Of a DNA stretch of 64,000 bases, positions 1 to 51,117 are shown in pieces. The notes beneath the pieces are model-generated. The model was not told the DNA's origin. It ran no database searches and saw nothing but the letters and a program-made list of their open reading frames with translations. Position numbers and translations under genes: made by a program. How positions within the stretch are numbered: the stretch's first letter is position 1; each line of letters starts with the position of its first letter. Source of the DNA: Raillietiella orientalis (lineage: Eukaryota); NCBI GenBank assembly GCA_036172245.1, contig JAYWIR010000026.1, forward strand, positions 1,054,001-1,118,000, written 5' to 3'.

Positions 1-1990
1 CACCGCAACTTTTCGGTTTCCCACACCTATACCATAGCCGCCATCCGGAGAACCGTTCGATCTTTTGCGCTTGTTCTGCACAGATCACGTGGATCTCCTG
101 CAGCAGCGCAAGGTCGTAGGACTCCAGAAGAACGGCCATGTCTCGTCTCCTGCCGGCGTCTGTCATGCCGTTCACGTTCCAAACGACGATGCGCAGACGA
201 CGGCGGGAGGAGATTCCCGGCATTACTGCTGGGAAGATTAAGGTGTGGGGTAGCCCACCTCTTGCGAGGCAGGCATGATATCCATGGGGGTTTCGGCCTT
301 CTCAGGAACCAGAGGCACCTGTTCGGCCTCCACCTCCTCCATCCCCTCCGTGTCCGCGCGTGGGAGTCTCTCGGGCGATGGGTCCCGAGAGTTTCCCACG
401 CTGATGGCACCCTTGCTTGCGGAAGCCATTTCTTCCCCCTCGACGGGGGAGACGAGCTTCCTCCGCTTTCTGAACTTACGTCCAGACTTCCTGCGGGGTG
501 CCGTGGAGACGGAGGCTGCATTTCCGGCCTCCACCTCGGGGTCGGAAGTGGGGGACTCCTGAGGGGAGGCCGGACGCCTTACGGCCTTCTTGCCAGCCTT
601 GGAGGGTTCTGGCTGCAACGAGGCTGCCAGCTCCTCCGCGGCTCGCGCGAAGGCTACGTCATCGATGGTGGTGTCGATGACGGACGCCGCCGCCGGCTCG
701 CTCCCCTCGCTGTTGACATAGTCAACAGAGGGGAGGTCGTCGGTAGCGGCAAGTTCTTTCTGGCAGCGTTCGGCAACATGGAGAACGCGTTCGACGACGA
801 CGCTGCACTCTTTAATTATCGCGCTACCCTGCTCTTTCTTCTTTTGTTGGTAGGCGATTTTTTTTTCCATCCTCCTCTCCTTCTTTGATTTTTTTGCCGT
901 TGCCACTTGCCACCCAATCTCCTGGCCGGCTTTCTCAACTTTTTCGGCGTTGGTCGCCGGAATCTCGGGTGCTGCCTGGGTCTTGGGAACGGGTGGCACA
1001 GTCTTCGCGGCAGCTTTCGCCGCCAGACTTTTCTGCAGAAGCCGGGCGCGTTTTTAAAGGTTTCTCTTGGAAACCACTCGCACTGCTGCTTTTGAGCACC
1101 CCTCCTTCGTGTGACCCATTGTGCCGCATACTTGGCACTGCACGTTGGGACACCTCTTTTTGAGGTGGCCCGACGTATTGCAGAAGCCACATTATTTCGG
1201 CTTCCCCACATACCAGAGTTCGACGGTTTCGCCTTCGGCCTCCAGATTGTAATGAAGAGTGCAGCCCTCCCAAAAGGTCACGCGCGCAGCCGTGAAGCCG
1301 TGTTGTAGCCCCGTGTAGTCCTCGAAAGGACCAACTTTCGTCCACTGCGGGTGGACCGTTCCAAACTGTTCCAAAGCGGCGCGAACCAGTTCTTTGCGCA
1401 TTCGCGCGGTCACGCCTAACAGGTGGACCACCATGCTGCGGTCCGCCGTAGTGGAGAGAAGCCTGCGCGTCTCCATCACAACGGAGGTTTTAAGCAGTCG
1501 TTGGGCCAGCTCTGCATGTTTGCAGATGACCTCAACGTACTGACCCCCGCTGCGGAAGGTCATAGCGCTGAGCTCCTCCTCTTTCACATCGAGAGCGCGC
1601 ATGCCCTTCGAGAAGGCGCGCGCGCTCTCTAAAGAATATAAATTGCCTACCTTGTAGAGCAATGAGGGGTTGTACCCCTCCTCTACATAGCCCGACAATT
1701 CCGCCGCGGCTGCAGGCGATGGCGCCGACACAACGGCGCTCCACGCCCGCGCTGCAGCGGGGACCGATTCCGTGGGGGCGGATGCCCCCACCTCCATCGC
1801 CTCTGGGGGCGACGTTGCCGCCGCCCTCTGGCTCTCTATCGCCTCTGGGGGCGGCGTTGCCGCTGCCCCCTGGCCATCCCTGGTGGTCGCGTCAGGCATC
1901 GCTGCCTGATCGACCACCGAACCACACGACGCTTGCACTGGGGAAGACTTCCTGGCACGAGGAGCACCGAGAAAACACGTCCACCCTGGA
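1..1990 (-). mobile_element. L1/Tx1-like LINE, family E, 5' part (5'UTR, ORF1, start of ORF2 EN); continues off the left edge
   Basis: 5' motif GGACGTGTTTT (1972-1982, minus strand). ORF1 has CGFCNTSGHLKKRC and CQVCGTMGHTKEGC knuckles. ORF2 starts at a TAATG overlap (221-225) with RLRIVVWNVNG..DLALLQEIH. Confidence 0.9.
223..1899 (-). pseudogene. ORF1 (gag-like, RRM-like region + 2 CCHC knuckles) of family E, disrupted
   Basis: ORF pieces 1192..1899 and 238..999. In-frame stop at 1192 before the knuckles, then a frameshift. Homologous to ORF1 at 13142 (WSAVV, YKVGNL, LWYVGKP). Confidence 0.85.
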
Positions 1991-1993
1991 GCG

Positions 1994-4197
1994 CACAAGG
2001 CGTTCGACTGCGTGAACCAGAAGCTGTTCTTCGAGCTTATGGAACGCCTTGGGTTCCCGGCGCAACTCTTGCTGTATTTGCGCGCGTGCTGGCGCCACGC
2101 GCTATCCTGCATCACTTTCAGCGGCTGCCGCGTATATGGTATTCCCGTTCGTAGGGGCATCCGACAGAGCGACAGCTTAAGCCCGTTGCTCTTTAGCATC
2201 TTCTTTGAATTGGTGCTGAGAGCGTACAGGCTGACACTGTCTCACTTGCCATGCTCCTCCCCGGGTACGCCTGCCGTGGCCGCCTACGCTGATGACCTGC
2301 TTCTTCTGCTCCCCATGTCCACCCCGGCGTCCAGTGTCGAGAATTTCTTCGACCTGCTTCGTCGGGGAGCGGGCGTGAGCGTGAACAGAGAGAAGAGCGT
2401 GGTCGTTCCTGTGGGTGCGTCGTGGGAGGGGCAGTCCGACTGGATCCGCCTGGGGATCCCCACGGGCGGGTACTTTAAGTACCTTCGTGTTCTGTTGGGC
2501 GCTCTCCGCGCAGCCGAAGCGTGGGCGGAGTGTCTTCAGAAAGCAGAGTTCGCCATCATCCCGTTCATTAACGGCAAGTTTACCTTGCAGGAACGGGCGA
2601 CTATTTGAAACACCTTTGTGGTCCCCCTCCTCCGTCCCTTGTTTTTTGTTTTGGAATCCCCCCTATGCGGCGGAACAGCGGGCTACACGCCTGCTCAGGA
2701 ACGCTCTCTGGGGTCCTTTGAGATCCAGGATCCGCCTTAAAGATTTGGTTGCTCCTAGTCGTGATGCTGGTTTAGGTATCCTGACAATGGAGCGAATCGG
2801 ACTGCAGGTGCAGTTGCGACTGCTTGCACTGTGTGCCCAGCTATGGACATGCCCCCTGTGTGTGCCACCACGCATTCTCCTGCGGAGATGCGCCGGCAGC
2901 AAAGGATTTACCTCGCTTTTGCCGGGCACTCAATACAGGAAGCGTGGTTTCGGGTTTCCATTGCGGCAGTTGACCGCACTTCTGGAAGCTCACTCGTGGA
3001 TCTCCTGCCGCTTAATGAACTTTATAGCTCGGCGGCAGGAGTCTGTTTAATCCTGGGCGGCGTTCCAAGGAATACGCCCTGAAGATGTTCGCCCCCTGCG
3101 CCAATTTTTTCCACGATCCTTGGAAGAAGTACTGGAGGACTAGGTGAAGTTTTCTACCCTGGCTGCCACGCCTCTTTCCGCAGCGCTGTCTGCTCTCAGG
3201 GCAAGAAACGACAGTTGCGAACCGGCGAGGTGGGAGGTTTCCTGCACGAGAGCGGCAAAAACCAAACTCCTTGGCGCCTGGAAGACGAGTGAGGTGGCGG
3301 ACACCGCCACTTCTCGTGTTACTGCAAAGGGACTCCTCCGGTGGGCAGAAGAACTTGCTGTCACCCCCGAAGAACTTGTAGTCCCTCCACAGTGTATTGA
3401 CAGTTCGCTGCTCCTTCTTGCTTGGAAACAAGCCGTAATGCTTTTCGTTCACTGGGGTTTTCAGTGCAACCAACGTTGGCATCGTGACTCCGGGGGACTT
3501 GCGTCTGCGAACTGCGTTCGTTGCGGATCGACAGAGTCGATTCCGCACCTACTTCTGGACTGCGGTGCCCTACAAGGACCGTGGTGCAGTCTGGCAACAG
3601 CACTCTCGCATCCCGTGGACACCGCAAGAGATTTGTTGCTACGATTCTTCACGCCGAGCGGGCTGTCACTAAGCGCAAGGATTGCAACCATCGGTTGCAT
3701 CCGCGCGATAGTTTCCGTCCGCCAGGCGTTGGTAATCAACGGACAGCACCAAGAGGTAATCAGCAAAGCATCCTTATACATGGGAGCATCCGCTAGATGG
3801 CCTCATTTGACAGAGGAGACAAAAAGGAATCTCGCCGCAATACACCGCCGGTTTACACACCCTCAGCAGCGGCCAACCCGGTGATCATTGCCCTACCCTC
3901 CATAAACTAGTTTTGTATTTTCTTTTTACACCCGCGTCCCCATAGGCTCCGGAACATTTTAGGTGCTCATCGTTTAAATCCCCATGAGTACGGAGCCTAA
4001 CCAAAGACCCGTTACCCTTCCCTCCAGTTTTTGATTTTTGTTTGTTTCCCCTCATTCCCCCCACGCTGCGAGCGGTTTGTTTACCAGTCTTGCGTGCCGG
4101 TAATTTTTCTATGTTCTCTGTCGTTCTGTTGGTTGGGGACATTGTCCCTGACCAGTTTATTATTATTAATAAACGCCCCGGCGTGACCGGGTGATAA
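1994..4197 (+). mobile_element. Family A LINE copy A1, 3' half (RT from HKAFD onward, C-terminal domain, 3'UTR)
   Basis: Near-identical to 7897-9670 (GIRQxDSLSP, YADD, CVRCGSTESIPHLLLDC). Several nonsense changes. Ends AATAAACGCCCCGGCGTGACCGGGTG-ATAA. Confidence 0.93.
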
Positions 4198-4284
4198 ATT
4201 TCAATCGAGTGCGGACGTGTTTTTCTTCGCTCTCGTCTCCGTGCTTTCATCCGCTTCATCTTGGCGTCGTACATTTTGACGACG

Positions 4285-6193
4285 ATGTCGACCCAACCCG
4301 AAGCTACTGAAGTTGGAGGAACAGCATCCGGATCTGCAATCGCGAAACCGACGGCCGCCTCCACTTCGTCTTTCTCGCCAATGGAGAGGAGATTTGCTGA
4401 CGTTGCTGCCACAGCAGCCGTCAAAGGGAAACTACTCGACGAATCGGAGTTGCGGGCATACGTAGCCCAAGGCTATAGACCTGCTCTCCGATATAAGGTG
4501 AGTGGTTTTCTTTCTGCGCGCGACGGGAATCAGTTCAACGATGAACTGACCCGTGTTGGCGTGTGGGAGGAGGACCTTCTCGCCATTATGCCCGTAAAAG
4601 ACATGGGCTATTTCAAGGTGCGTTGCAAAGACGCTGCACTTGTGCAACGCTTGCTGCGCACCCCGTTGTCGATCCGTGGTTAGAAGGTCTTCCCGGCCGC
4701 CATGGACGACTCATTTGTGGTGGAGATTTTCGACATCGAGTCGGAAATCTCCGATATTGATATTCGGAACGCGTTGGCAAAATTCGCCACGGTCCATGCG
4801 TAGCAACCTCAAGGACTTCCCGTCCATACACAGCGGAGTCGCTGGAGTCCGGCTTACAATACCGGACCGCCGTCTGCTGCCCACCAAAGTACAGGTGAAA
4901 GACACAATCGTTCACCTGTGGTTCGTGGGCAAAGTAAAAACGTGCGAGCAATGCGGGAAGGAGGGGCATTGTTTGGATAAATGCCCCTCTGGAAAATGCC
5001 GTTATTGCAAACTATCCGGGCACCAATTGAAAAATTGCCCGGATCTTTTGCGAAAAAAGGCAGCCGCGGAGCTTCATCTTAAGAAACAAAGCGCGGATAA
5101 AAAGAAAAAATCTGCGAAAAACCTGGAGACCCCACGGCAGAAATTCCGAAAAAACGCGAGGCGGATTGTCGCCCCAAAGCAGCAGGAAACCTCGCACGCG
5201 AAGCCCTGCGCGCCCCCTCTCGCGGCAGGAAAGCCGCAAAAGAAAGGGTGCGGGGAATCCGGGACAATGATAAGTCCCCCTAGGCGCAATAGCTGTCCTT
5301 TCCAAGCACGCCCGGCTCTCTCGGAGTTCGAGCAACCGGCAGGGACGTCAATGGACAACGGCGGTAAGGACACTTCCAGTACCGTCAGATCCATCCCTTC
5401 ACCTCCTGCAGTGGCTGAGAAGCCCAAATCGGGTAAGAAGGGTTGTGCCGTGTCGACTTCGAAAGTCGGCAAAAAAAAATCCGCGTCGCGATCCAACACC
5501 GCGAAAGCGGAGAAAAATCTCACGCCATCGCAGTCGGAGAGCAAGCTCTCGACTGGCGCGGATGCCATGCCAACGAAGGGATTGAAAGCCCTTCCGAAGG
5601 CAGCGTCCATGACGAGCGTGTCGAAGCCATCGAAAGTGCTACCGTCCAAAGACGCGGATGGCTTCAAAGATGGCAATGGAGCACAATCTCCATTTACGGC
5701 GCCACGCGAAGTGAGGAACCGTAATGAAGTAAAGAAGACTTCAGCAAAGGTCCCTCGTGCAACTGCGCGGGAGCACGCTGAAAACGCGTGCGCCGGGAAA
5801 GCAGCCGTCACCAAAAGCGATGCTCTGGAGACGGAAAAAGACAACAGGACAGCTGTCAATCCAGCAGAACCTGTCACTACTTCGCGGAAAGCCGAAACCC
5901 GATCGAACATGCGCCGGTCGGACTCCAAAATGGATGCCGTTCCGATCACCGAGACGAGGACAACTCGTTCGAAAGCGTGTGCGCGCCGATCAAAAGTAGG
6001 CAGCCAGGCAACGCTCGCCGCGAAGCAACGCGAAGTCTCCACGAAACCCGACGGGGTTCAGCCTGGCGTGGAGGCATTACATGCATGCAGCACGACAGAG
6101 GACGGTGGCGACCGTCCCCTTCAGCCAGTCGTGCTGCTCGCCGTCTGCTCGCCGGATAAAGCGAGCAAAAAGCCGCCACCTTCCCAGCAGTAA
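4285..6193 (+). pseudogene. ORF1 of A2 (CCHC zinc knuckles, long K/S/A-rich tail), disrupted
   Basis: ATG at 4285, TAG at 4681 and a frameshift near 4800. Knuckles CEQCGKEGHCLDKC and CRYCKLSGHQLKNC. Confidence 0.85.
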
Positions 6194-8958
6194 TGCGGGG
6201 AATCGCGTCTTCTCGTCGTCTGTCCGTAACGTGTTGGAACGTGAACGGACTACAGAACGACGAGAAGAGGAGATTAGTAGCCAACGCCCTGCGCCCCTTC
6301 GACCTCGCGCTCCTGCAGGAGATTCACGTAATCTCCGACGAGCAGGCAGCCGAAATCGAGGAGCGCGCAGGCGGAACGCTACATTGGCGGTGCGGCGGCG
6401 CACACACGTGCGGCGTCGCGTTCCTCGTAAGAGGAAAAATGGCGGAAGCGGTGCGTAGTGTTCGTTTCGATGACGACGGACGGATAGGCCAGCTTGTCAT
6501 CAAGTGGCCCGAGTCCATCGATCTCGTCGTTACGAACGTCTACGCGCCGAGTGGCTCTCGCTACCTCGAAGAAAGAGTAGCCTTCCTTGGTGAGGTGCAG
6601 AGCCACTGGCTCAACAACTCCGGTTTCCAGGTGGCGCACCTCGTCGCTGGGGACTTCAACGTCCGCCTGCTCTCCGACGATTGGAGCCGCCCGAAGGAGC
6701 GCGCGCTGCCCATCGAGATGTGCGCGTCCGTGCACGCCGCCAACTTGATGGTCAGCGAACCTGGAATGAAAGGATCGCTCGATCACGTTTTCCTCGATAA
6801 AAACCTGCATTCGCGTGTGGGTAGGAGAGCAAGATTGTTGACTAGGCTTTCTGACCACCACAGGTTGGAGTTTGAGATCCTTCCGCCAGGCAGGGGGCCT
6901 CCGTTGCAAAACTGGAGGATGCAGGCGGATTGGCTTAGCCAACCGGAGGCTGCGGAGCATCTACGTGGATACCTCCGAGGCTTTGCCATTCTAGAACTTG
7001 CGGACTGGGACGATCTCAAAAGATGTGTCCGCGAGTTCTGCTGCCAATTCCCCTCGCACCGGCTTCCACGCGGTTTCGGAGAGGGCGTGGCCAACAGTAG
7101 AGACTTTCTGCAGGCCCGCACGTTTTCGAGACGCGCGGATGTCGGGCGTCTCGCAGAGTACAAGGCGATGGCTGAGCGCCAGGTCTGGCAGTCCGGAGCA
7201 GCATGCCTGTTGGACGACAAGGGCCAGGAATGTTCGGCCCCAGCCGAAGTACGCCGCATTGTGAGACGCTACTACTCCTCACTGTACGCGGAATCCCCGA
7301 CGGAGGATATTCTTTCTGAGATACTCCTGTCTCAGGATGCTCGTGTTGTCGGCGAGGAGGAACGCGAACGTCTCAACGAGCCCTTCACGGCGGATGAATT
7401 TTCGTCCGCAATCGCTGGGCTGAAGAGACGAAAGGCGCCAGGCGAGGATGAACTCCCTGCAGAGTTTTATCAGTGCTTTGCAGTGGAGCTCATTCCCTTG
7501 ATGCTGAAACTTGCGACGCTGATGAGTGAATCCGGGAATGTCCCGGATTCCTTACGCTCAGCGAAGGTGCGTCTCCTGCCGAAAGGCGGAGACTTGCGTC
7601 AACTTAACAACTGGCGTCCGATCACCTTGGTGAACTCGGACGTCAAGTTGTTTTCCAAGCAGTGGGTCGCGCGGTTAGGAAGTATCGCGGAATCTGTGGT
7701 GAGCCCGGAACAAACCTACGCGGTTCCGGGACGATCCATGGAGGCGAACATCCTTTTCGCGCGTACATGGAAGCAGCTGCAGGAAGTTGTGGCGCAGCAA
7801 AGCCAGGCTGCTGCGAAAGTCACTGCCGCAGGCAAGAAGAACAGGCGCCGACGGCAGGAGGGAACGCCAGGTGCCTTGGCGGTCGCGGTCGATCTCCACA
7901 AGGCGTTCGACTGCGTAAACCAGAAGCTGATTTTGGAGCTTATAAAACGCCTTGGGTTCCCGGCGCAACTCCTGCTGTATTTGCGCGCGTGCTGGCGCCA
8001 CGCGCTAACCTGCATTACTTTCAGCGGCTGCCGCGTGTATGGTATTCCCGTTCGTAGGGGCATCCGACAGGGCGACAGCTTAAGCCCGTTGCTCTTCAGC
8101 ATCTTCTTTGATTTGGTGCTAAGAGCATACAGGCTGACGCTGTCTCACTTGTCAAGCTTCTGCCCGGGAACGCCTGCCGTGGCCGCCTACGCTGATGACC
8201 TCCTTCTTCTGCTCCCCATGTCCACCCCGGCATCCAGTGTCGAGGATTTCTTCGACCTGATTCGTTGGGGAGCGGGCGTGAGCGTGAACAGAGAGAAGAG
8301 CGTGGTCGTTCCTGTGGGTACGTCGTGGGAGGGGCAGTCCGACTGGATCCTCCTGGGGATCTCCACGGGCGGGTACTTTAAGTTCCTTGGCATTCCGTTG
8401 GGCGCTTTCGGCGCAGCCGAAGCGTGGGCGGAATGTCTTCAGAAAGCAGAGTTGGCCATCAGCCCGTTCTTTAACGGCAAGTTTACCTTGCAGGAACGGG
8501 CGACTATTTGGAACACCTTTGTGGTCCCCCTCCTCCGTCCCCTGTTTTTTGTTTTGGACCCCCCCTATGCGGCAAAACAGCGGGCTAAGCGCCTGCTCAG
8601 GAACGCACTCTGGGGTCCGGCGAGATCCAGAATCTGCCTCAAAGATTTGTTAGCTCCGCGTCGGGATGCTGGTTTAGGTATCTTGACAATGGAGCGAATC
8701 GGACTGCAGGTGCAGTTCCGACTGCTGGCACTGGGTGCCCAGCTATGGACATCCCCCCTGTGTGTGTCAGCCCGCATTCTCCTGCGGAAATGCGCCGGCA
8801 GCGGAGGATTTCTCTCACTTTTGCCTTGCACTCAATACAGGAAGCGGGGTTTCGGGTTTTTATTGCGGCAGTTGACCGCACTTCTGGAAGCTCACTCGTG
8901 GATCTCCTGCCGCCCAATGAACTTTGAAGCTCGGCGGCAGGAGTCTGTTCAATCCTAA
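6193..8958 (+). CDS. ORF2 of A2: AP endonuclease + reverse transcriptase (C-terminus continues disrupted to about 9670)
   Basis: 921 aa ORF with WNVNGL, LQEIH, NVYAP, GDFN, LDHVF, SDH (EN) and KAPGEDELP, WRPITLVN, DLHKAFD, GIRQGDSLSP, YADD, KFLG (RT). Confidence 0.95.
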   Translation: MRGIASSRRLSVTCWNVNGLQNDEKRRLVANALRPFDLALLQEIHVISDEQAAEIEERAGGTLHWRCGGAHTCGVAFLVRGKMAEAVRSVRFDDDGRIGQLVIKWPESIDLVVTNVYAPSGSRYLEERVAFLGEVQSHWLNNSGFQVAHLVAGDFNVRLLSDDWSRPKERALPIEMCASVHAANLMVSEPGMKGSLDHVFLDKNLHSRVGRRARLLTRLSDHHRLEFEILPPGRGPPLQNWRMQADWLSQPEAAEHLRGYLRGFAILELADWDDLKRCVREFCCQFPSHRLPRGFGEGVANSRDFLQARTFSRRADVGRLAEYKAMAERQVWQSGAACLLDDKGQECSAPAEVRRIVRRYYSSLYAESPTEDILSEILLSQDARVVGEEERERLNEPFTADEFSSAIAGLKRRKAPGEDELPAEFYQCFAVELIPLMLKLATLMSESGNVPDSLRSAKVRLLPKGGDLRQLNNWRPITLVNSDVKLFSKQWVARLGSIAESVVSPEQTYAVPGRSMEANILFARTWKQLQEVVAQQSQAAAKVTAAGKKNRRRRQEGTPGALAVAVDLHKAFDCVNQKLILELIKRLGFPAQLLLYLRACWRHALTCITFSGCRVYGIPVRRGIRQGDSLSPLLFSIFFDLVLRAYRLTLSHLSSFCPGTPAVAAYADDLLLLLPMSTPASSVEDFFDLIRWGAGVSVNREKSVVVPVGTSWEGQSDWILLGISTGGYFKFLGIPLGAFGAAEAWAECLQKAELAISPFFNGKFTLQERATIWNTFVVPLLRPLFFVLDPPYAAKQRAKRLLRNALWGPARSRICLKDLLAPRRDAGLGILTMERIGLQVQFRLLALGAQLWTSPLCVSARILLRKCAGSGGFLSLLPCTQYRKRGFGFLLRQLTALLEAHSWISCRPMNFEARRQESVQS

Positions 8959-9692
8959 GCGGCGTTCAAAGGAATACGCCCTGAAGATCTTCGCCCCCTG
9001 CGTCAATTTTTTCCACAATCCTTGGAAGAAGTACTGTAGGCCGAGGTGAAGTTTTCTACCCTGGCTGCCACGCCTTTTGCCACTGCGCTGTCTGCCCTCA
9101 GGGCAAGAAACGACAGTTACCAACCGGCGAGGAGGGAGGTTTCCTGCACGAGAGCGGGAAAAACCAAACTCCTTGGCGCCTGGAAGACGAGTGAGGTGGC
9201 GGACACCGCCACTTCTCGTGTTTCTTCAAAGGGACTCCTCCGGTGGGCAGAAGAACTTGCTGTCACCCCCGAAGAACTTGTAGTCCCTCCACAGTGTATT
9301 GACAGTTCGCTGCTCCCTCTTGCTTGGAAACAAGCCGTGCTGCTTTTCGTTCACTGGGGTTTTCAGTGCAACGAGCGTTGGCATCGTGACTCCGGGGGAC
9401 TTGCGTCTGCGAACTGCGTTCGGTGCGGATCGACAGAGTCGATTCCGCACCTACTTCTCGACTGCGGTGTCCTACAAGGACTGTAACGTAGGCTGGCAAC
9501 AGCACTAGTGCATCCCGTGGACACCGCAAGAGACTTGCTGCGACGATTCTTCACGCCGAGCGGGCTGTCACTAAGCGCAAGGATTGCAACCATCGGTTGC
9601 ATCCGCGCGATAGTTTCCGTCCGCCAGGCGTTGGTAATCAACGGACAGCACCAAGAAATAATCAGCAAAGCCCCGGCGTGACCGGGTGATAA

Positions 9693-12600: not shown

Positions 12601-13039
12601 GGACGCACTGCAGCCAGCCGCAGCCATCGCAGCCTTGTGCTGTGTCCGTGGCATCGTGGCGGCATGGAGCGACGCCAATAACGAAAAAGTGGATCCACAC
12701 GCGAGGGATGTCATCCCATACGCCCAACGCTTCATGCGGAGAGCTGCCGGATGGCCCCAACTGGGTAATATACGGACGGATCTCGAGGGCTTCCTTCAAC
12801 GGATGGGCCCTCCTCACAGCGCTCAGTGATCCCTTCCCTGCCCTCCAGCTTCTTTTTGTCTGTTTACTTTTTATTTTTTCTTTTGTTTTATCCCCATCCC
12901 CCTTCGCTGCTGAGGAACGCTACGCTGGGCTGCGTCCCGGCGTCCCGGCAGGTCCAGTGCATATGGCCGTGAGCGGGGCCTTGTACCGCGGATGTAGAGT
13001 TTTTTAAAAATAAACGCCCCGGGCGTACCCGGGTGTATA
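9693..13039 (+). mobile_element. Family B LINE copy B1, from the EN GDFN motif to the 3' end (target of A1/A2)
   Basis: Begins (D)FNLRLLTG..SIDH..LSDH, then linker, RT, U-rich 3'UTR and terminal hairpin at 13018-13033. Confidence 0.93.
10544..12829 (+). CDS. Open RT + C-terminal zinc-finger part of ORF2 of B1 (upstream part has stops)
   Basis: 761 aa: WRPITIVN, DLHKAFD, IRQGDSLTP, YADD, KYLG, CVRCGERESLSHLIVDC. Confidence 0.9.
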   Translation: MIRLIRDEGDVPASFRSARVRLLPKGGDLRNLNNWRPITIVNTDAKLVAGLWASGLGQVTESIISPEQTYAVAGRSMDANLFFASTWMHAQRCQKEGKGKIGNLTLGPPAGQGMDSRAGKGTLALAVDLHKAFDCVDQGLLLELLGRMNFPPSLINYLRSCWRLAIISVSFSSQKVHGVPVRRNIRQGDSLTPLLFSSYFELVLRAYRVTLASLPSSCPGTPAVAAYADDLLLLLPMSTPAKAVGDFFDLLSRGTGLQVNRAKSSVVPVGAAWAGQQDWVRLGIPTARCLKYLGVPLGDYSPAKAWSSCLQKVETAIGPFLEGKFHLTERVAVWNAFAALIFRRLLFVCLAPRVVKKRTKDLLRIALRGKGRPRVPLQDLCASRRDGGLGLLTLERVEIQLRWQTLAIAAKMWSTPRCVPARHLARCVSRCEGLASFLLCLGWKIRRCGLMLGRIATLAKTNGWMVCGPANSSAWLEESAGTWAKLNRRSENHMNCLRIAPYANRTLREILEFPRSRRWALTTPLATAMPYLLRAPQDRQKPRWQVTCQIAGREKMLSGWTTGELADATTPTVQPRGLMRWGELLAIPTDVLKWPPLLKESRILPLKWQESALLLLHWGIPCNARRFHWTRGTVDPECVRCGERESLSHLIVDCAAIRPLWERFGATLVLPRGSTPRDVLRLLFVKDALQPAAAIAALCCVRGIVAAWSDANNEKVDPHARDVIPYAQRFMRRAAGWPQLGNIRTDLEGFLQRMGPPHSAQ

Positions 13040-38400: not shown

Positions 38401-38680
38401 GGAGGCGGTAGCTCTCGTTTCCGGAGGGGCGGTTGCATCCTTTTCCAAGGGGGCGGTTGCCCGATTTTTCAAGGAAGCGGTTGCTCTCTCCTCCGTGGAG
38501 GTGATTGCCCCCACCCTTGTGGGTTGGGGAGAGGAACCATCCTCTCCCCCGCCAACTTCCATCGCGGTGTCCTCAGGCATTCCTGCCATGGAAAACCGGC
38601 GATGCACCACGCACTAACACACCAAAAAAGGCTTCGAAAACTCGCGCGGCAGGAGGGCAGAAAAAACACGTCCGCACACT
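35458..38680 (-). mobile_element. Family B LINE copy B5, 5' half (5'UTR, ORF1, EN, linker up to YYSSLY)
   Basis: 5' motif at 38661-38673. ORF1 homologous to 13142 (CGHCDATGHLKKRC). EN GDFNLRLL, IDH, LSDH. Confidence 0.92.
38270..38486 (-). repeat. 24-bp (8-aa) coding minisatellite, about 9 units, in the ORF1 N-terminus of B5
   Basis: ATASLKNR ATAPLEKD ATAPPETR ATASLKKG AAALVQKA ATTSWKKG TTAALEKG ATTPLKKG TTASLDPN. Confidence 0.85.
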
Positions 38681-41406: not shown

Positions 41407-41829
41407 CGCCAAAGCCCAAGGGGAGACGTTCCAGGGGAAACTGGTCGCAAAACTCGCGGACTGAGCATTTCCTTTCGTCCCAGTTTGCGAGCGTCTCAAG
41501 ATGGAATCCTCACAGGAAGGCTCGTAGATGTTCCGCCGCTACTGCGAGGCGAAACCAGTCCTCTGGCAGACGCCACGTTTTTAAGGAAGGGCTTTAATTG
41601 CGTGGATGTAACTCGAGCACGGGCCGTAGGTGGTCGGACATCTCTGCCGGGAGCGTTCCTCGAGTTCCCACTCGCGTGCACAGGTGGTTGTCGAAGAACA
41701 TGTGATCGATGTTCCGATCTCTCCCGGCATCACCGGCCAACAAGTTGCGCGCATTCATTGCTGCGCACAACTCGTTGACCAGTCGTGCTCGACTGCTGGG
41801 CGCACCTGCCAGCAAGCGGAGATTGAAGT

Positions 41830-43825
41830 TTATAACCCGGTCACGCCGGGGCGTTTATTAATAATGATAAACTGGTCAGGGACAATGTCCTTAACCAACA
41901 GAACGACAGGGAACATAGAGAAATTGCCGGCACGCAGGCCTGGTAAACAAACCGCTCGCAACGTAGGAGGAATAAGGGGATAACAAACAAAAATACAAAA
42001 ACTGGAGGAAAGGGTAACGGGTCTTTGGTTAGGCTCCGTACTCACGGAGATTTAAACGGGAAGCACCTGAAATGTTCCGGAGCCTATAGGGACGCGGGTG
42101 TAAAAAAAAATAAAAAATTTGTTTATGGAGGGTAGGGCAATGATCACCGGGTTGGCCGCTGCTGAGCGTGTGTAAACCGGCGGTGTATTTCGGCGAGATT
42201 CCTCTTTGACTCCTCTGTCAAATGAGGCCATCTAGCAACTGCTACCATGTAGAAGGATGCTTTGCTGATTACCTCTTGGTGCTGCCCGTTCATAACCAAC
42301 GCCTGGCGGACCGAAACTATCGCGCGTATGCAACCGATGGTTGCAATCCTGGCGCTTAGGGACAGCCCGCTCGGCGTGAAGAATCGTCGCAGCAAGTCTC
42401 TTGCGGTGTCCACGGGATGCACTAGTGCTGTTGTCAGCCTACGCGACGGTCCTTGTAGGACATTGCAGTCCCGAAGTAGGTGTGAGATCGAGTCCGTCGA
42501 TCCGCACCGAACGCAGTTGGCAGATGCAAGTCCCCCGGAGTCTCAATGCCAACGCTCGTTGCATTGAAAACCAAAGTGAACGAAAAGCAGCACAGCTTGT
42601 TTCCAAGCAAGGGGGAGCAGCGAACTTTGAACACACTGCGGAGGGACTACAAGTTCTTCGGGGGTGACAGCAAGTTCTTCTGCCCACCGGAGGAGTCCCT
42701 TTGAAGTACAACGAGGAGTGGCGGCGTCCGCCAAATCACTAGTCTTCCAGGCGCCAAGGAGTTTTGTTTTCTCCGCTATTGTGCAGGAAACCTCCCACCT
42801 TGCCGGTTCGCAACTGTCGTTTTCTGACTTGAAGGCAGACAGCGCTGAGGCAGGAGGCGTGGCAGTCAGGATAGAAAACTTCACCTCGTCCTGCAGTACT
42901 TCTTCCAAAGATCGCGGAAGAAGATAGCGCAGTGGACGAATATCTTCAGGGCGCATTTTTTGGAACGCTGCCCAGGATTCAACAGATCCTCAAGCCAAGC
43001 TTTGAAGTTCATTGGGCGGCAGGAGATCCACGAATGGGCATCCAGAAGTGCGGTCAACTGCCGCAATGGAAGCCCAAAACCTCGCTTCCTGTATTGGGTG
43101 CCCGGCAAACGCGAGAGCAGTCCGTCGCTCCCGGCGCATCTCCGCAGGAAAATGCGTGCAGGCACACACAAATGGGATGTCCACAGATGAGCACACAGTG
43201 CCAGAAGTCGCAACTGCACCTGTAGTCCGATTCGCTCCATTGTCAGGATACCCAAACCAAAATCCCGACGTGGAGCAGCCAAGTCTTTAAGGCGGATCCT
43301 GGATCTCGCCGGACCCTAGAGAGCGTTCCTGAGCAGGCGTTTAGCTCGCTGTTTCGCCGCAGAGGGGGGGTCCAAAACAAAAAACAGGGGACGGAGGAGG
43401 GGGGCCACAAAGGTGTTTCAAATAGTCGCCCGTTCCTGCAAGGTAAACTTGCCGTTAATGAACGGGATGATGGCCAACTCTGCTTTCTGAAGGCAGTCCG
43501 ACCACGCTTTGGCTGCGCCGACAGCGCCCAACGGAACGCCAAGGTACTTAAAGTACCCGTCCGTGGGGATCCCCAGGCGGATCCAGTCTGACTGCCCCTT
43601 CCACGACGCACCCACCGGTACGACCACGCTCTTCTCCCTGTTTACGCTTACGCCCGCTACACGACGAACCAGGTCGAAGAAATCTTCGACACTGGACGCC
43701 GGGATGGACATGGGGAGCAGAAGAAGCAGGTCATCAGCGTAGGCGGACACGGCAGGCGTTCCCGGGCAGGAGCTTGGCAAGTGAGACAGCATCAGCCTGT
43801 ATGCTCTTAGCACCAACTCAAAGAA
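41830..43825 (-). mobile_element. Family A LINE copy A3, 5'-truncated, TSD ACTTCAATC
   Basis: Colinear with 2200-4197. GATTGAAGT at 41821-41829 and 43826-43834. Confidence 0.95.
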
Positions 43826-44240
43826 GATTGAAGTCACCCGTAATAAGGTGCGCCCTTCGCACGCCAGCTTCAGCCAGCCAGTCTTGCCGCAGGGATTCGA
43901 AGAATGCAGTGCGTTCCTCCGTCCTGTGGCTGCCCACAAGAGCGTAGAGGTTCGTGACCACGAGGTCGATCGAGTCGGACCACTTGAACACAAGCTGCCC
44001 AACTCGACCGTCCTCGTCGGACCGTACGCTGCGCAGTGTGCTGTCGACGGCTTTTTTAAGCAAAAAGGCCACTCCTCAAGAGCGGTCGTTTCCATTTCTC
44101 CACAGTCTCCGGCCTCCTGCGATTCTTTCGATTTCCTGGATGTCTCCTGCTCTGAGAACATGCGTCTCTTGCAGCTGCACCAGGTCGAAGTCTCGCAGTA
44201 TGGCGGCTAAGTCTCGCCTATTTCCTCCGTCGCGCAACCC

Positions 44241-45840
44241 CCTGCGGAAGCGTGGTCCTGCAGCCTCCAAAAAGTCGAGACGGCGATCGACCCGTTCCTG
44301 GGAGGCAAGTTTCACTTGCCAGAAAGGGCCGCGGTTTAGAATGCCTTCGCGGCCCCCATCCTCCGCCCCTTGCTTTTTGTTTGCCCCGCCTCCGTGGAAT
44401 CTAAAAAGCGGACGAAGGACCTCCTACGCATAGCCCTTTGGGCAAGGGGAGGCCCCGAGTCCGTTTGAAGGACTTGTGCGCTCCGCGTCGGGACGGCGGT
44501 CTCAGCATCCTGACGCTGGAGCGCGTGGAAATCCAGCTGCGATGGCGAACCTTCGCCATCGCAGCGAAGATGTGGAACACCGCTTGGTGCATTCCGGCCC
44601 GCCTCCTGGCCAGGCATGTGTCCCGCTGCGAAGGACTCGCATCGTTTCTTCTGTGCCCTGGCCGGAAGATTCGAAGATGCGGTCTACTGCTCGGCCGCAT
44701 GGCAACCCTGGCGGAAGAGAACGACTGGATGGTTTGTGGCCCCGCTAACTCCTCCGCTTGGCTGGAGGAGAATGCTGGCACCTGGGCCAAGCAGAACCTG
44801 AGGTGCGAAGACCCGATGAACTGCCTCCGAGTCGGCTTTTACACCCGCCGAACTCTGCGTGGAATTCTTGAATTACCACCGAGTTGCACGTGGGCGGAAG
44901 GGACACCCCTTGCTACGGCGATGCCCTTCCTCCAAAGGGCGCTTAACGATAGCCGGAAGCCGAGGTGGCAAGTCTGCTGCCGTATCGCAGGCAGAGAGAA
45001 GATGATGAGCGGCTGGACCATGGGAGAGTTGACAGATGCGACGACCCCTAGTCTCCAGCCGCGTGTCTTAAGAAGATGGGGCGAGCTGCTCGGCATTCGA
45101 TTGGATGACCTGAAGTGGCCTCCGGTTCTACTTGGATTCAGGATTCTTTCCCTGAAGTGGCAAGAATCGGCGCTTCTGTGGCTGCATTGGGGTCTACCCT
45201 GCAACGCGCGCCGCTTCCACTGGACGCGGGGAAGAGTAAATCCTGCGTGTGCCAGGTGTGGGGAGCAGGAGTCGCTCCCCCACCTCTTAGTTGATTGCCC
45301 TGCCGTCCGGATTCTTTGGGATCGTCTCAAATCGGCCCTTGGGATACAGGATGGTGGCAATGTTGGATGTGTCTACAGTCTTGTCTTCGTGCGAGACGCC
45401 CTCAGTCCAGCCGCAGCCCTGGCAGCACTTTGCTGCATTCGTGGTATCGTGGCGGTCTGGAGTGATGCCGAAGATGAAGACTGCATCGTGAGGGACGTCA
45501 TCGAGTATGCTGTTTGCTTCCTGCAGAGAGCTACTGGATGGCCCCATCTGAGAAAAATGAAAATGGAACTCGAAGGCATCCTGCAAAGGATGGGCTCTCC
45601 CAGCAGTTGTCTGTGATTCCTTCCCGGCCCTCCAAACTCCTTTGGTTTTTTTTTTATTATTTTATTTTATTTCTGTTTTCTCTTCCATCCCCTTCTACTG
45701 CCGAGGAGAGCCGCACCGGGCTGCGTCCCGGTGTCCCGGCAGGTCCGGTATTGCGTGGTCGGCAGTAAGGCCTTGTACCACGTTCTGTAATGACTGTAGA
45801 AATGTTTTTTAATAAACCTCCCGGCGTATCCGGGTGGCAT
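44241..45840 (+). mobile_element. Family B LINE copy B7, 5'-truncated, TSD CGTCGCGCAACCC
   Basis: Colinear with 11447-13035. Direct repeat at 44228-44240 and 45841-45853. Confidence 0.95.
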
Positions 45841-46759
45841 CGTCGCGCAACCCGTTGACGTTCCAACAGGTGATGCGCAGGCGTCGGAAGGAGGCGAGCC
45901 CGCGCATCGGTGTAGTTATGGTTAGGTGGAGGTTGCCTCCTCCCTTTCGGGAGGCTGCTTGTTGGCGGCCGTGACGACGGTCGGCTGCTCACACGGGAGC
46001 ACGTCGTCGACAGCGATTTCCATTTCTGAGGATTCCAGGACACGGACGGGAGAGGGTTCGCGTGGCGCAACACACATCGATTCCTCTTCCGTGCCCGAGG
46101 ACATGGCCTCGTTCACCTGGGAAGCGGCCACACGTCTCGGGACCCCGACCTTTTGTACGGCCTTCCGTACAGTTCCGTACTTTTCCAGACTTTCGCGAAC
46201 GGCGGTCTTTGCTATCCTCATTGTTATTCCGGTGAGGTGGAGAACGATCGAATTGTCCGCCGTGAACGGGAAGATTCTTCTCATGTTCACGCTCACCGGC
46301 AGGCGCAGCTGCTGTTGAGCCATCCCTGCAGACTTGCAGTTCAGCTCAACCAGCTGCCCGCCACTTCGCACCGAAAGCCCGAGGATTTCTTCCTCCGGGA
46401 CTTTCAATTTCTTAAATTCTGCGGCGAAAGACCGCAAGACTGCGGGGGAGTACAGGCCATTTCCCTTATAAAGCAGGGCCGGGTTCTACCCGTCGGCCAT
46501 GTACGCCCGCTGTTCCTCTGCGGGGGGCGGCGCAGGCGCCGCGACCACCGCGCTCCAAGCCCTCGCCGGGGCGGGGGACTAATCTGTGGGGGGATGGCCC
46601 TTACATCCATGGGTTGGGAGGACGAGGCTCGCTCGCCCCCCTCCGCCGTTTTGGCGGCGTCCTCGGGCGTTTCTGCCCAGGAACAACCGCGCTGAAAGCA
46701 CCGAAACCACTGGCGAAAAAACGCTTTCTCGGAGAACCACAAAAACGCGTCTTTCTTGT

Positions 46760-48103
46760 CGCGCGGCGGCGGCAACAGCTGGCGTGACGTCACCGTTCAA
46801 ACTCGGATGTGCTCAAGCCCTGAAAGCTCCGTCTTCGCTGCTTACGCTCGATTCGCGACTTGGTCGCGGCGTCGGCGCATGCGCGACGGCGGGTTCACCG
46901 GGAGTGACGTCATTGCATATCGATTTCGTAGCGGAGCGGTTGTCGATCTCCGGGATGCGTCGAATTCTCTCGCGGCATTCCTTGATGACCTCCCGAGGCG
47001 CGGCCTTGTCCTTGCCTTTGGAGATCGTCGCAGGGGCAGCGCGGTTTTGTTAATAAATTTAATTTTACCGGAGACCAGCTGCCAGCCTTCCTCGTCGGCA
47101 GTCTGTTTCGGAGTCTCTTTTAATGAGTTCGCTGCTTGCTGCACGACTTTTTCGTTCGGCGGTCTTTCCGCGATTATATTTCGATTTATTTTAGCCGCTG
47201 TCTTCTCCTTAATATTTTGGGAAGATTCCGACGGTTGTGGAGCGACTTTCATCGGGCACACCACTTTGGCGTGACCCTTAGCGCCGCACGTAAGCATAAT
47301 GCGTCGGGGCATCTCTTTTTAAGATGCCCGAACGTCTTACATATGCCGCAAAGCTTCGGCTTCCTCACATACCATACATCGACAAACTCGGTGCCGATCT
47401 GGAGTTTGTGAGGAAGTTCGCACCCCTCGCGAAGGGTCACGCGTGCGGCGACGAGCCCGCTAAAGGCAGCCCCAATACAGAAAGTGTTCGGCTTCCGCCA
47501 CGTGGCATGAATCGCCGCGTATTTTTCAGTTTCGGCGCGAATGGACGTATCGTCCATTCGCACCGTTGTTCCCGTTAGGTGGATCACAATAGAACTGCCC
47601 ACCGTGTAGGGAAGGATGTTGTGACGCTCCATCTGCCCAGGCGTGCAGAGCAGTTTGTGAGACAGAGCTGCATCTTTGCAGCTCTGTCTCACAAACTGCC
47701 CGCCGCTGCGCACGGAGAGGCACGCAATCTCCTCTTCCTTAATGCCCATCCTAAGGATGGCATTCCCAATTTTTCGCGCTCGGAGAGGCGAATATAAATT
47801 GCCTACCTTGTACAGGAGGGCCAGATTATAGCCATCCTGTATGTAGTCCGCAATTTTCGCGGCGACGTCCGGCGTTTCGGCCGCTGCCACCGCGCTCCAT
47901 GCCCTCGCCGGGGCAGCGGGGTTCGATTGGGTGGTGGGGCGAGACCCCACCTCAGCAGGCTTGGAAGGCGGAGCATTTCCGACTCCCTTGCCTTTAACAG
48001 CGGCGTTTCCAGGCATCGCTGCCCGTCAGCAGCCGCGAAAGCACACGACACAATACAAAGAAACCCTTCTCTTGACGGAGGGCTCCGAAAACACGTCCGT
48101 CGT
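46760..48103 (-). mobile_element. LINE family F, 5' part (5'UTR + ORF1 from ATG 48016)
   Basis: 5' motif at 48088-48098. WSAVAA, YKVGNL, WYVRKP, CGICKTFGHLKKRC, EGWQLV. Confidence 0.88.
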
Positions 48104-48109
48104 TGGCTG

Positions 48110-49150
48110 TGGAACCAGCCGGTATTCGCAGCATTGTAAGGAGTTATTACATTGCTCCCTACAATCGTTTCGAACTCACTGAAACTTCTGTGGACTTCCT
48201 TTACCTCCCTTGCTTCCGTGCTGCCCTCCCTCAGGAAAGCCAGAGACAGCCAAGAGGAGGTATCGTGGGAAGTGTCCTACCTCATCGGAGGTAGAAAAAA
48301 CTCATGAAGGCGTGGACGTCCCGGGAACTAGCGGACGCTTCAGCTCCGAGTGTCCCGCCAAATAGAATTGTGCGCTGGAGCGAGCTGCTCGATATACCTT
48401 CAGAGGAGGTGAAGTGGCTCCTATCGTCTTGGGACGACGGCACCCTTCCCCTGCAATGACAGCGCACGGCGTTGCTTCTGGTCCATTGGGGACTTTTAAG
48501 CAGAGCATGCCTGTCTCACTGGACCTCAGGGAGTGTGGATGCTAATAGCACAGAGTGAGGGGGAAGGGAGAACATCCCCCACTTAATCATGGAGTGTGTT
48601 GCCCTCCGTCAGATGTGAGATCGATTCTCGTCGATCCTGAACAATCCGGTTGCCGACCCCTAGAACATTTTACAACGCCTCCTGATACGGGACGCCATGC
48701 CAGCCTCCGGGTGTGTAGCAGTGCTCTGTTGCATAAGCGAAATTTTGGAGAAGTGAACCGCAACTAGGAGAGGAGGAAGAAGTCAGAATGCCATTCACTG
48801 GGTAACTATCTCTTTGGAGAACGTTTCCCGTGGTCGCTTTCTGAGAAAACTTCTGCCGGCACTTGTTCGCATCCAAAACCGGATACAGAGGCCTCCCTAC
48901 GGCGTACCTTGATCCCTTGCCTTTCCTCTTTTCCCCCGAAACGTTGTCCCCTTAGGCATTTTTCTTTTCTTGGTTGATTTTTTCCTGTTTTTCCCGCCCC
49001 TTCTCCAGTGGAGAGGACCTTAGCGGCCTGCGGATAGGTAAGAACAAGTACCCCAATACAGACAGAACATGTGTTCTAACTGAAAAAATGAAAGTGATAA
49101 TGACACAAGAAGACTTTTTTATATAAATTCTTTTTGTAAAAATTTTAATA
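48110..49150 (+). mobile_element. Heavily decayed B-like LINE 3' relic
   Basis: Traces of IRSIVRSYY, RWSELL and LVHWG, and GATCCCTT followed by a U-rich 3'UTR at 48911. Confidence 0.65.
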
Positions 49151-49289
49151 ATGAAAGCACCGGATTGCCGTGGTGAAAAATCTGCGCTCCTGCTGGAGCA
49201 ACGCGATAATCACCGTTTCTTTCAGAGGACAAAACGTGTTTGGCCTGTAGGTAAGGCGAGACTACCGGCATCGCGACAGCCTGAGTCTC

Positions 49290-51117
49290 CTGCTCTTTGG
49301 CACCTATTTTGCACTGGTGCTGAGAGCATAGAGGGTGACTACCTTACCGAGCTCGTGCACAGACACGCCGGCTTTGTTGGCGTATGCTGAACACTTTCTG
49401 CTCCTGCTGACCATGTCCGCACCGGTTTCGGCAGTCAAGGATTTCTTCGACTTGCTGAGACGCGAGACAGGACTACGGGTGAAGAGGACGAACTCTTCGT
49501 TGGTTGCGGTTGGTGCAACGTGGGCAGGACGACCTGACTGGATCCGCCTAGGGATCCCCACGGAGAGGTACTTAAAGTACCTTGGCTTCCATTGGGGGAC
49601 TTCTGCCAGTCAGAAGCCTGGTCATGTCATCTCCTAAAAGTGGAATCGGCGATCGACCCGTTCCTGGAAGGCAAGTTTTACTTGCGGAAACGGACCGCAT
49701 TGCGGAAGGCGTTCGCGGCTTCCCTCCTTCTCCCCCGGCTTTTTGTTTGCCCCGCACCCCGCAAGATGAAGAAGAGAACTAAAGATCTGCGTATCGCCCT
49801 GTAGGGTAGCGGGACTCCTTGTGTGCCTCTGCAAGACTTGTGAGCTTTACTTCGGGATGGCGATCTCGTCCTCCTGACGCTGGATCGGATGCTAATTCAG
49901 TTGCAATAGCGAACATTGGCCATCGCAGCGACGTGTATTCAGAGCTACAGAGCGGGAGGACTCTCCTCTTTTCCTCTGTGTCCCGGCCGGAATGAAAGAA
50001 GATACGGCCTTCTCGAACGCATGGCCCCCTGACCAAGGAGAACGGCTGGATAGTCTGGTTCCTGGACAGCTCCAGCGCATGGCTGGAAGAAACAGCTGGC
50101 ACGTGACCAAAATTGAACCAGTCTAGTGTTGAATCCTGGAACCGCCTCCTACCCGGCATTTACATCCGCTGTACGCTGCGGAACATGATCGAGTGTCCCG
50201 CCAGAAGCACTTGGGCGGAGACGACCCCATTGGCCACGGTGCTACCCTTCCTACGAAGGGCGCTTCAAAACAGCCGGAAGCCGGAATGGCAAGTCTCCTG
50301 CCGGATAGAGGGCAAGGAGAAGGAGTTAAGTGGGTGGACCATGAGGGAACTGGCAGACGCCGCGACCCCAAGCGTTCACCCGCGTGGAATACGGAGATGG
50401 GGAGAGCTGCTTGGCATCCCGCTGGATGACCTAGAGTGGCCCCCGTTATTTAGAGACCTATTCACCTTCCCCCTCAGGTGGCAGGAAACGGCGCTGCTGT
50501 TGTTGCACTGGGGTCGTCCCTGCAACGCTTGCCGCCACCATTGGACGTTGGGGAACGTGGGACAGAACTGTGCAGTGTGCGGGGAGAAGGAATCCCTCCC
50601 CCACCTGTTAGTGGACTGCGCTGCCCTCCGGCCCTTGTGGGAACGTTATGCTACCACCCTTCCTATGCCGGTCGTCAGTACCCCAGAGACGTTCTGAGAC
50701 TCCTTTTCGTGCGAGACGCCCTGCCACCAGCCTCAAGCCTGGCAGCGCTTTGCTGCCTCCGAGGGATTGTGGCCGCGTGGAGCGCAGCCAACAGAGGAAG
50801 GGATCTCATCGCACACGCGGGTCGCTACCTGCGAATCGCGATCGGCTGGTCCCATCTTTGAGCTATGCAGATGGACCTCGAGGGCATCTTGGAAAGGATG
50901 GTCTCTTCCTCCATAAGACAGTGATCCCTTCCCAACTCACCTAAGTTTTTTTTTTGCTTTTTCTTTTTCTCCCCCGTCTCCTCCGCTGCCGAGGAGAGTC
51001 AAGCCGGTCTGCGTACCGCCTTCCCAGTAGTCCCTAAGATATATTGGCAGTAGCGGGGCCTCGTATCGCAATTGTACAACGTTTAGAAACAAACGCCCCG
51101 CCGTGACTGGGTGGGTT
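49290..51117 (+). mobile_element. Decayed B-like LINE 3' half at the cluster edge
   Basis: AYAEH (decayed YADD), DWIRLGIPT, LLLLHWG, CAVCGEKESLPHLLVDC, 3'UTR and degenerate terminal hairpin. Confidence 0.85.

Follow-up and report, generated by a model that had tools for sequence, protein, structure and literature searches.

A deep nest of LINE copies in Raillietiella orientalis with signs of repeated insertion at fixed motifs in the genes of other LINEs

Introduction

Several long interspersed nuclear elements (LINEs) of the APE type, that is, with an apurinic-type endonuclease (EN), are sequence-specific in their insertion, such as Tx1L in Tx1D, R1 in 28S ribosomal DNA (rDNA), and TRAS/SART in telomeric repeats, and the known targets of site-specific LINEs are, to our knowledge, RNA genes, DNA transposons, and simple repeats. 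Nesting is familiar from the intergenic DNA of maize, where long terminal repeat (LTR) retrotransposons form stacks with younger elements inside older ones, and mammalian L1 copies made by twin priming carry a 5' part inverted against the 3' part, and the two parts overlap for a short length where they meet. In the present study, we analysed a stretch of 64,000 nucleotides (nt) of Raillietiella orientalis (assembly GCA_036172245.1, contig JAYWIR010000026.1, positions 1,054,001 to 1,118,000 of the forward strand), hereafter called the window and numbered from its first nucleotide, in which positions 1-51117 can be parsed as the right-hand half of a single deep nest of LINEs, with younger copies lying within older ones. 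In our judgement, this part of the window is best explained, with good probability, as the nest of a LINE radiation in which the families named here A, B/D, and E reuse motifs situated in other LINEs.

The described clusters with which this locus invites comparison are those of Zepp in Coccomyxa and ZeppL in Chlamydomonas, nested LINE clusters that are taken as centromere markers (PMC3446292, PMC8226300, PMC9940879, PMC11005252). The Zepp clusters of Coccomyxa are given a GC content of 61%, versus 53% in the rest of the genome (PMC3446292, PMC8226300), and the Zepp/ZeppL clusters are described as consisting of a single family (PMC9940879, PMC11005252). Furthermore, Zepp and L1-1_CR are listed with (A)n tails in Table 3 of PMC3747384, a paper in which target-specific Tx1 elements are described as well. 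A full-text literature search, the coverage of which did not include the original Zepp descriptions, returned no account of several LINE families targeting fixed sites in each other's genes.

Results

A nest of 18 LINE copies

Nucleotide self-comparison together with a protein-level map of the window accounted for positions 1-51117 as 18 LINE copies of the EN/reverse transcriptase (RT) kind (Table 1), the only exception being about 120 bp (48106-48228) that were given to element L by position only. No host gene and no Pfam domain foreign to LINEs was found in this interval, which bears out the initial annotation of the locus, made from the letters alone, in which no host DNA could be recognised over about 48 kb. 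Seventeen of the 18 copies lie within or beside another LINE copy. From the outside inwards, B' holds L, L holds K, and K holds G2; G2 holds B44, A3, tD, and B33, and B33 holds I; I in turn holds E2, E1, and G1; and G1 holds Dn+1 (which itself holds C) and Dn, the latter holding A2 and A1, with H inside A1. When the sequence is read from right to left, each copy lacking its left flank opens before, and closes after, the copies inside it, and the missing left halves would be expected to the left of position 1 in mirror order, i.e., the rest of H, A1, Dn, G1, I, B33, G2, K, L, and B'. In the outer copies L and B', the open frames are shorter than in any other copy, and the GC content is lowest in L, which fits their being the oldest members of the nest.

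Four head-to-tail pairs are present, namely A1-A2, Dn-Dn+1, B33-tD, and E1-E2. The initial annotation had treated the element ends as separate choices of target, and this holds only in part, since the ends at 4197, 13039, 26570, and 35457 belong to the upstream members of these tandem pairs, each pair sitting at one retained site.

Insertion at the same nucleotide of different hosts

The A1/A2 pair in Dn and the copy A3 in G2 are both oriented in sense and share one nucleotide of insertion within the GDFN codons, in sequences of D and G that are about 67% identical there; the sense insertion of A at GDFN codons, first noticed in the initial annotation, is thereby seen in two different host families. 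The insertion point is directly followed on its 3' side by A(C/T)TTCAATCT and falls within the GDFN codons of the EN of other families. With one mismatch allowed, the target GAYTTCAATCTCCG occurs four times, versus 0.03 expected, two of the occurrences being occupied and two free. The GDFN site of A2 itself reads GACTTCAACGTCCGC and is unlike the target, with AACGTC where the targets have AATCTC.

The B/D group, of which the elements first called B are a part, inserts antisense at a distance of 16-18 nt from TGGAACGTC (on the host sense strand). This was seen at three sites, comprising the two EN-RT linkers of G1 and G2 and the EN N-terminus of G2 (B44), with five elements in all, in agreement with the earlier placement of B/G antisense in EN and linker. 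The two D/B copies ending at 17807 and 41406 have their 3' ends at exactly matching nucleotides of the linkers in G1 and G2, and each of these linker sites carries two elements in tandem. The 9-mer TGGAACGTC, near the WNV codons, occurs four times in the 64 kb, versus 0.48 expected, and three of the four occurrences are occupied. As read from the 3' ends, the rule for the B/D group would be GACGTTCCA 16-18 nt downstream. Additionally, family E (formerly named D) shows two insertions, antisense, into one 16-bp site in open reading frame 1 (ORF1) of host I, so that its previously suggested antisense insertion into ORF1 stands, for a single site only.

In 200,000 simulations, each with 13 random and independent sites, coincidences were counted where sites agreed in orientation and lay within 2 nt of each other, and two or more such coincidences arose with P ~4.5e-4 under random insertion. 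Taken together, the sequence patterns within the window support the site specificity of A and of the B/D group. A rival explanation is regional targeting, by which elements would be directed to a single chromatin domain, such as a centromere or a haven of low recombination, or would persist only there, landing at essentially random positions inside it. It can point to the LINE and transposable element (TE) clusters documented at putative centromeres in green algae (PMC3446292, PMC8226300, PMC11005252, PMC9940879), to decayed LINE relics that are present in the flank too, and to five of the 13 target sites that were seen once each (H in A1, I in B33, K in L, L in B', and C in Dn+1). However, one and the same nucleotide is used by independent copies that sit in different host families, with the low probability just given for uniform insertion. 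We regard regional targeting as an unlikely explanation of the locus; it may act too, but alone it cannot explain reuse at the nucleotide level.

Some further contacts between elements were recorded. The 5' end of H adjoins A1 at the RT codons HKAFD, antisense (1989-1998), and the truncated end of I adjoins B33 at the NNWRPI codons, antisense (33060-33080), each contact being a single case; conserved RT codons may be targets of further lineages. G1 and G2 begin, with full 5' ends, 75-90 nt past the point where ORF1 of the respective host (I or K) stops, in sense orientation (20419-20500 and 46760-46850), in the same region of the host but at different nucleotides.

Insertion junctions

Target site duplications (TSDs) of 9-16 bp flank five of the 18 copies, namely A2 (9 bp), A3 (10 bp), B44 (13 bp), and both E1 and E2 (16 bp). 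The TSD of A2 is ATTTCAATC, at 4198-4206 and 9693-9701, and that of A3 is ACTTCAATCT, at 41821-41830 and 43825-43834; the two had been described as spacers of 9-10 bp but represent TSDs. In the E1/E2 pair, the 16-bp site stands in three copies, at 20934, 26571, and 32294. The ORF1 of host I keeps the same codon phase on both sides of E1/E2 (...PSATLQ / SPTLQERSD...), across an insertion of 11 kb, and, TSDs aside, the three G2 pieces follow directly on one another when mapped onto G1.

In tD (35458-41406), the inverted arm ends at Dn coordinate 10322 and the 3' arm starts at 10312, which leaves an overlap of 11 nt; both arms have CTCCCTTTACG where Dn reads ...TTTGCG, and the inverted arm extends to the true 5' end. 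We read tD as a full-length copy with a twin-priming inversion. The end at 35457 had been interpreted as a linker insertion. An insertion of B33 into the linker of the neighbouring element (35458) was considered and rejected, the sequence that follows being the inverted 5' arm of the twin-primed tD. Likewise, C was tried as the 3' half of G1 and rejected, since the flanks of such an element would point in opposite orientations.

The hallmarks of target-primed reverse transcription (TPRT) found here are thus TSDs on five copies, many 5'-truncated copies, and one twin-priming inversion. In view of the TSDs, the inversion of tD, the contiguity of the G2 pieces, and the in-frame ORF1 of host I, the junctions look biological. 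That some or all of them are assembly chimeras, formed from collapsed related repeats, is suggested by a region that consists wholly of repeats, but the same assumption would have to produce TSDs around five copies, an 11-nt inversion overlap with a private variant, and an ORF in frame across an 11-kb insertion, among copies that are 8-30% different and hence separable by long-read assembly. We give this explanation scarcely any credence.

Divergence between copies at shared sites

The D/B copies at the G1 and G2 linkers are 78% identical, the adjoining G sequences 90%, and one copy is inverted, the other not. Ratios of nonsynonymous to synonymous substitution rates (dN/dS) for the D/B family were 0.29 for Dn versus Dn+1 (in frame), 0.30 for Dn versus tD, and 0.31 for Dn versus B33; the other values were 0.20 and 0.34 for G1 versus G2, 0.54 for A1 versus A2, and 0.29 for the RT of E1 versus E2. 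Because the divergence is mostly synonymous, we conclude that the copies sharing a site are separate insertions from lineages that diverged while active, and not duplicates of dead junctions.

These data also bear on the idea that a single ancestral junction was multiplied within the cluster, through segmental duplication, gene conversion, or unequal recombination, to give the repeated junctions. Such repeat clusters recombine readily, and positions 17098-18230 and 40676-41829 do align over the B/G junction at 80%. A copied junction, however, is hard to reconcile with inserts at 78% identity beside G parts at 90%, or with one insert that is a twin-primed full-length element and another that is not. 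Moreover, the differences between G1 and G2 and between Dn and Dn+1 are mainly synonymous (dN/dS 0.20-0.34), which is unexpected for dead duplicates, and A occupies its two sites in hosts of different families. We consider a common ancestral junction very unlikely.

Element ends

The window contains 13 3' ends, i.e., the 12 listed in the initial annotation, all of which proved to be true element boundaries (nine by AATAAA and hairpin, three by sister homology), and a degraded one at ~49180 (element L). A motif scan for AATAAA plus hairpin returned 12 matches, of which three were spurious. Nine of the 12 listed ends have AATAAA, then a perfect GC-rich hairpin, and then a tail of 4-6 nt; at 32293, 41406, and 51117, the hairpins are degraded and the ends were set by homology to sister copies. 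An A-run was seen at none of the 13 ends. LINE-derived sequence adjoins 12 of the 13 (11 of 12 by the earlier count), and only the end at 51117 adjoins unassigned DNA.

At the opposite end of the elements, a 5'-terminal motif, GGACGTGTTTTT, is common to A, D, G, H, and K, and it may represent an internal promoter or an element for recognition of the RNA 5' end. Sequences close to G(A/T)GTGCGGACGTGTTTTT stand at 4207-4230, 13058-13075, 38655-38678 (-), 1975-1988 (-), 20400-20416 (-), 46745-46758 (-), and 48090-48104 (-), and Dn+1 has about 18 additional nt (13040-13057) ahead of the shared motif.

Element families and inventory

Family A consists of A1, A2 (full length), and A3, to which C shows 68% nt and 63% amino acid (aa) identity. 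The D/B group, made up of Dn, Dn+1, tD, B33, B44, and B', is 70-88% identical across the last 700 bp, with L as a remote member. The RT of family E has about 27% protein identity to that of A, and among the interleaved lineages the aa identity ranges from 27 to 65%. The B 3' halves and the 5' halves with ORF1 and EN (13040-15388 and 35458-38678), kept apart as two families in the initial annotation, are parts of a single family; the half types have ~36 nt of the GDFN region in common, and tD carries one of each. As a side observation, G2 is without ~950 bp of the ORF1 C-terminal region present in G1 (18915-19861 in G1; 45922-46252 in G2), which G2 has lost or G1 has gained. All segments are listed in Table 1.

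Table 1. Segments of the window, with positions, strand, and main contents
Segment	Positions	Strand	Contents
H, 5' LINE part	1-1993	-	EN N-terminus 2-238, ORF1 352-1863, 5' end near 1988; remainder beyond window
A1, 5'-truncated family A	1994-4197	+	ORF2 residue ~579 to 3' end; upstream in tandem pair
A2, full-length family A	4198-9692	+	Left TSD ATTTCAATC 4198-4206; ORF1 4598-6193; ORF2 6160-8958 with EN and RT
Dn, D/B-family copy	9693-13039	+	GDFN codons to 3' end; hosts A1 and A2; 5' part beyond window
Dn+1, 5' part	13040-15388	+	5' untranslated region, ORF1 13094-14965, EN to 36 nt beyond GDFN position
C, 5'-truncated A-like copy	15389-17101	-	3' end 15389; antisense in Dn+1 EN; ~2.6 kb of host absent
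Dn+1, 3' part	17098-17807	+	Final 710 bp of D/B copy; 3' end adjoins G1 linker
G1, family G 5' part	17808-20418	-	5' end near 20416, ORF1, EN, to linker residue ~307; free A target 18218-18231
I-left	20419-20949	-	Host element I, ORF1 C-terminal part to ORF1/ORF2 junction; TSD copy 1 20934-20949
E1, full-length family E	20950-26570	+	ORF1 21047-22903, EN 22791-23900, RT 24333-25490
E2, second full-length E	26571-32293	+	TSD copy 2 26571-26586; 86.9% identity to E1
I-right	32294-33063	-	Host element I, ORF1 residues ~52-312, 37% aa to A ORF1; TSD copy 3 32294-32309
B33, D/B-group copy	33064-35457	+	NNWRPI codons to 3' end; upstream in tandem pair at G2 linker
tD inverted arm	35458-38678	-	5' end, ORF1, EN to Dn coordinate 10322; twin-priming inversion (our reading)
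tD 3' arm	38679-41406	+	Dn coordinate 10312 to 3' end, adjoining G2 linker
G2a	41407-41830	-	Family G, GDFN position to linker residue ~307; right TSD of A3 41821-41830
A3, 5'-truncated family A	41831-43824	-	Sense at G2 GDFN codons; TSD ACTTCAATCT
G2b	43825-44240	-	G2 EN part between A3 and B44 insertions
B44, 5'-truncated D/B-group copy	44241-45840	+	Antisense in G2 EN N-terminus; TSD GGGTTGCGCGACG, 13 bp
G2c	45841-46759	-	G2 EN start, ORF1, 5' end near 46758
K, H-like LINE 5' part	46760-48105	-	ORF1 and 5' end near 48104; hosts G2
L, degraded B-like 3' fragment	48106-49180	+	38% aa to Dn C-terminal region; decayed 3' hairpin end ~49180
B', most diverged, outermost D/B-group copy	49181-51117	+	~71% nt to other copies; 3' end adjoins unassigned DNA
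Flank	51118-64000		Lower GC; no gene recognised; decayed LINE relics 52023-52118 (-), 53182-53978 (+), 54065-54272 (-), 63014-63673 (+)

Protein domains and gene layout

EN or RT domains were detected in six of the 20 long ORFs scanned, with Exo_endo_phos in three and RVT_1 in four, both domains being present in the 932-aa ORF2 of A2 (6160-8958). By their apurinic-type EN and their RT, the elements of the window classify as APE-type non-LTR retrotransposons, i.e., LINEs. As to the cysteine-histidine domain at the C-terminus of ORF2 and the CCHC knuckle of ORF1 that are looked for in the L1/Tx1 clade, weak matches below the cutoff were obtained for zf-RVT (E=0.003, 18.6 bits; cutoff 27.5) and zf-CCHC (E=0.02-0.05), and the translations of Dn and Dn+1 show a CxxC...H...C pattern.

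In A2 (6188-6196) and H (~225-235, -), the ORF1 stop overlaps the ORF2 start as TAATG, an arrangement that suggests termination-reinitiation, and at the ORF1/ORF2 boundary the D copies have TGA or TAA without ATG. The ORF2 of A2 stops at 8956-8958, and similarity in the same frame to the longer ORF2 of D runs on to ~9618 (tblastn segment 7477-9618); A2 probably carries a premature stop and is then not fully intact. Tandem repeats occur within ORF1, with units of 24/72 bp in the N-terminal region of the tD inverted arm (38278-38488) and of 27-48 bp near the E1 ORF1 start (21206-21417), and they are local expansions inside coding sequence.

Relatives of the window elements

A quick RT tree of 25 rows, which had no labelled L1, Tx1, or Zepp reference among them, placed all window RTs and one metagenome protein in a single clade (SH-aLRT 99), with E as its long-branched sister lineage. 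The best full HMMER match was the metagenome protein P0039 (619 aa, from a 2.9-kb contig), with 56% identity to A and 64% to Dn; two short fragments were matched as well, and all else reached at most 36-40% identity. A word-based protein search gave a top match of 24% identity. The nearest named matches, at 30% or less, came from animals and plants, and the ESM Atlas returned generic EN/RT clusters only, without a taxonomic lead. A metagenome scan with the 3' hairpin pattern gave no match, and one with the A2 ORF2 gave 59 loci, the top-ranked at 21-27% identity, higher values (up to 54%) being confined to short segments, with no usable sister locus among them. The second-best public relative, P0040, which lies outside the window, is a protein of 1555 aa with 36% identity, in which five stretches match the query RT and three carry RVT_1; its gene model probably spans tandem or nested LINE copies in another organism.

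Base composition and flank

The GC content is 53-62% in the first 51 kb versus 43-51% in the remaining 13 kb, which include a stretch of 43-45% GC at 54.5-58 kb. CpG depletion was considered as a sign of methylation decay and was not seen, CpG observed/expected being 0.75-1.33. No tRNA gene and no Rfam family was found in the window, and among 73 ORFs of the flank no host protein domain was detected, the matches being limited to a sub-threshold Tetraspanin and a weak RVT_1. The LINE island may sit in a larger and older TE graveyard.

Discussion

The proposed course of events, by which motifs in other LINEs are reused, is that at least 18 successive TPRT insertions by a lineage-specific LINE radiation built the nest, of which positions 1-51117 form one flank. 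The recognisable motif is in each case situated downstream of the 3' junction. It would lie downstream of the first-strand nick and would thus stay intact after insertion, leaving the site reusable, whence the four head-to-tail pairs. Specificity might reside in the element's own EN or, alternatively, in read-through transcripts whose target-derived 3' extension pairs at a nicked homologous site; pairing of a read-through 3' extension with the nicked target is described for rDNA-specific LINEs. The conserved codons of other LINEs would offer a target that is multicopy, slowly changing, and harmless, and targeting of this sort could give rise to a self-reinforcing, GC-rich LINE island, like the islands that mark putative centromeres in some green algae.

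Several points weigh against this reading. The evidence comes from a single window, and the left flanks of 11 copies lie outside it, so that the nested parse is consistent but not closed. Two good A targets, at 15351 and 18218, and one TGGAACGTC, at 14934, are unoccupied; B' and L are without TGGAACGTC near their 3' ends; and the case of E rests on a single site. No TSD is visible for tD, Dn+1, and C, and C requires an extra deletion of ~2.6 kb in its host Dn+1. The 3' hairpins fold not significantly better than shuffled sequence (z +0.1 to -1.9, 11 ends folded alone), and the hairpin evidence consists in conserved position. Finally, G, H, I, and K are represented by 5' halves only and B33, B44, B', and L by 3' halves only, which makes the family counts and the 'cross-family' labels partly uncertain; family G, for instance, may be the 5' part of a B-like subfamily, in which case some of the events would be self-targeting in the manner of Zepp.

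A bolder version of the motif-reuse explanation, which we put forward tentatively and would not back at even odds, is a guild of related LINE lineages, each specialised on a different short motif in the genes of the others, in effect mutual site-specific hyperparasites. Conserved codons would serve as the motifs, namely GDFN and the TGGAACGTC of WNV type, to which HKAFD, NNWRPI, and the junction of ORF1 and ORF2 may have to be added. If such a guild exists, every insertion would leave the target motif intact, the island would grow by its own rules, and it could form a centromere-like domain without a satellite or a host-encoded target.

Should the reuse of motifs be true, conserved coding motifs of other LINEs would constitute a new kind of safe haven, one that no mutation can remove as long as the host element remains active. 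It would provide a testable rule for the assembly and renewal of LINE-only islands, including the putative centromeres of some algae, and natural pairs of EN and target with defined motifs of 9-14 nt, which could be used to study specificity by APE-type EN as opposed to RNA 3' extension.

How does the locus compare with the systems described so far? With the L1-type LINE clusters of Zepp (Chlorella/Coccomyxa) and ZeppL (Chlamydomonas), it shares insertion into existing copies, nested clusters of many kb, frequent 5' truncation, and a GC-rich cluster, the island here having 53-62% GC and its flank 43-51%. It departs from them in its hairpin end without poly(A) at all 13 ends, where they have an (A)n tail, and in its several interleaved lineages, where they have a single family; nucleotide-precise, motif-linked sites are not mentioned in the passages compared, and the likeness is one of description. 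To site-specific APE-type LINEs, the window elements are likened by behaviour: both use one nucleotide position of a repeated, multicopy, host-harmless target in a fixed orientation, with tandem occupation possible, whereas here the elements aim at motifs that encode protein in other LINEs (the GDFN codons and TGGAACGTC), and several lineages share one arena. The inverted 5' part of tD with its 11-nt overlap recalls the twin priming of mammalian L1, from which tD differs in an inverted arm that reaches the full 5' end and in the lack of a visible TSD. The Russian-doll order is that of the maize stacks, which consist of LTR elements not known for nucleotide-level reuse of sites, whereas motif-reusing LINEs make up the present one. 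On sequence grounds, the behaviour seen in the window thus appears to be a variant that extends what is known of site-specific and Zepp-type LINEs.

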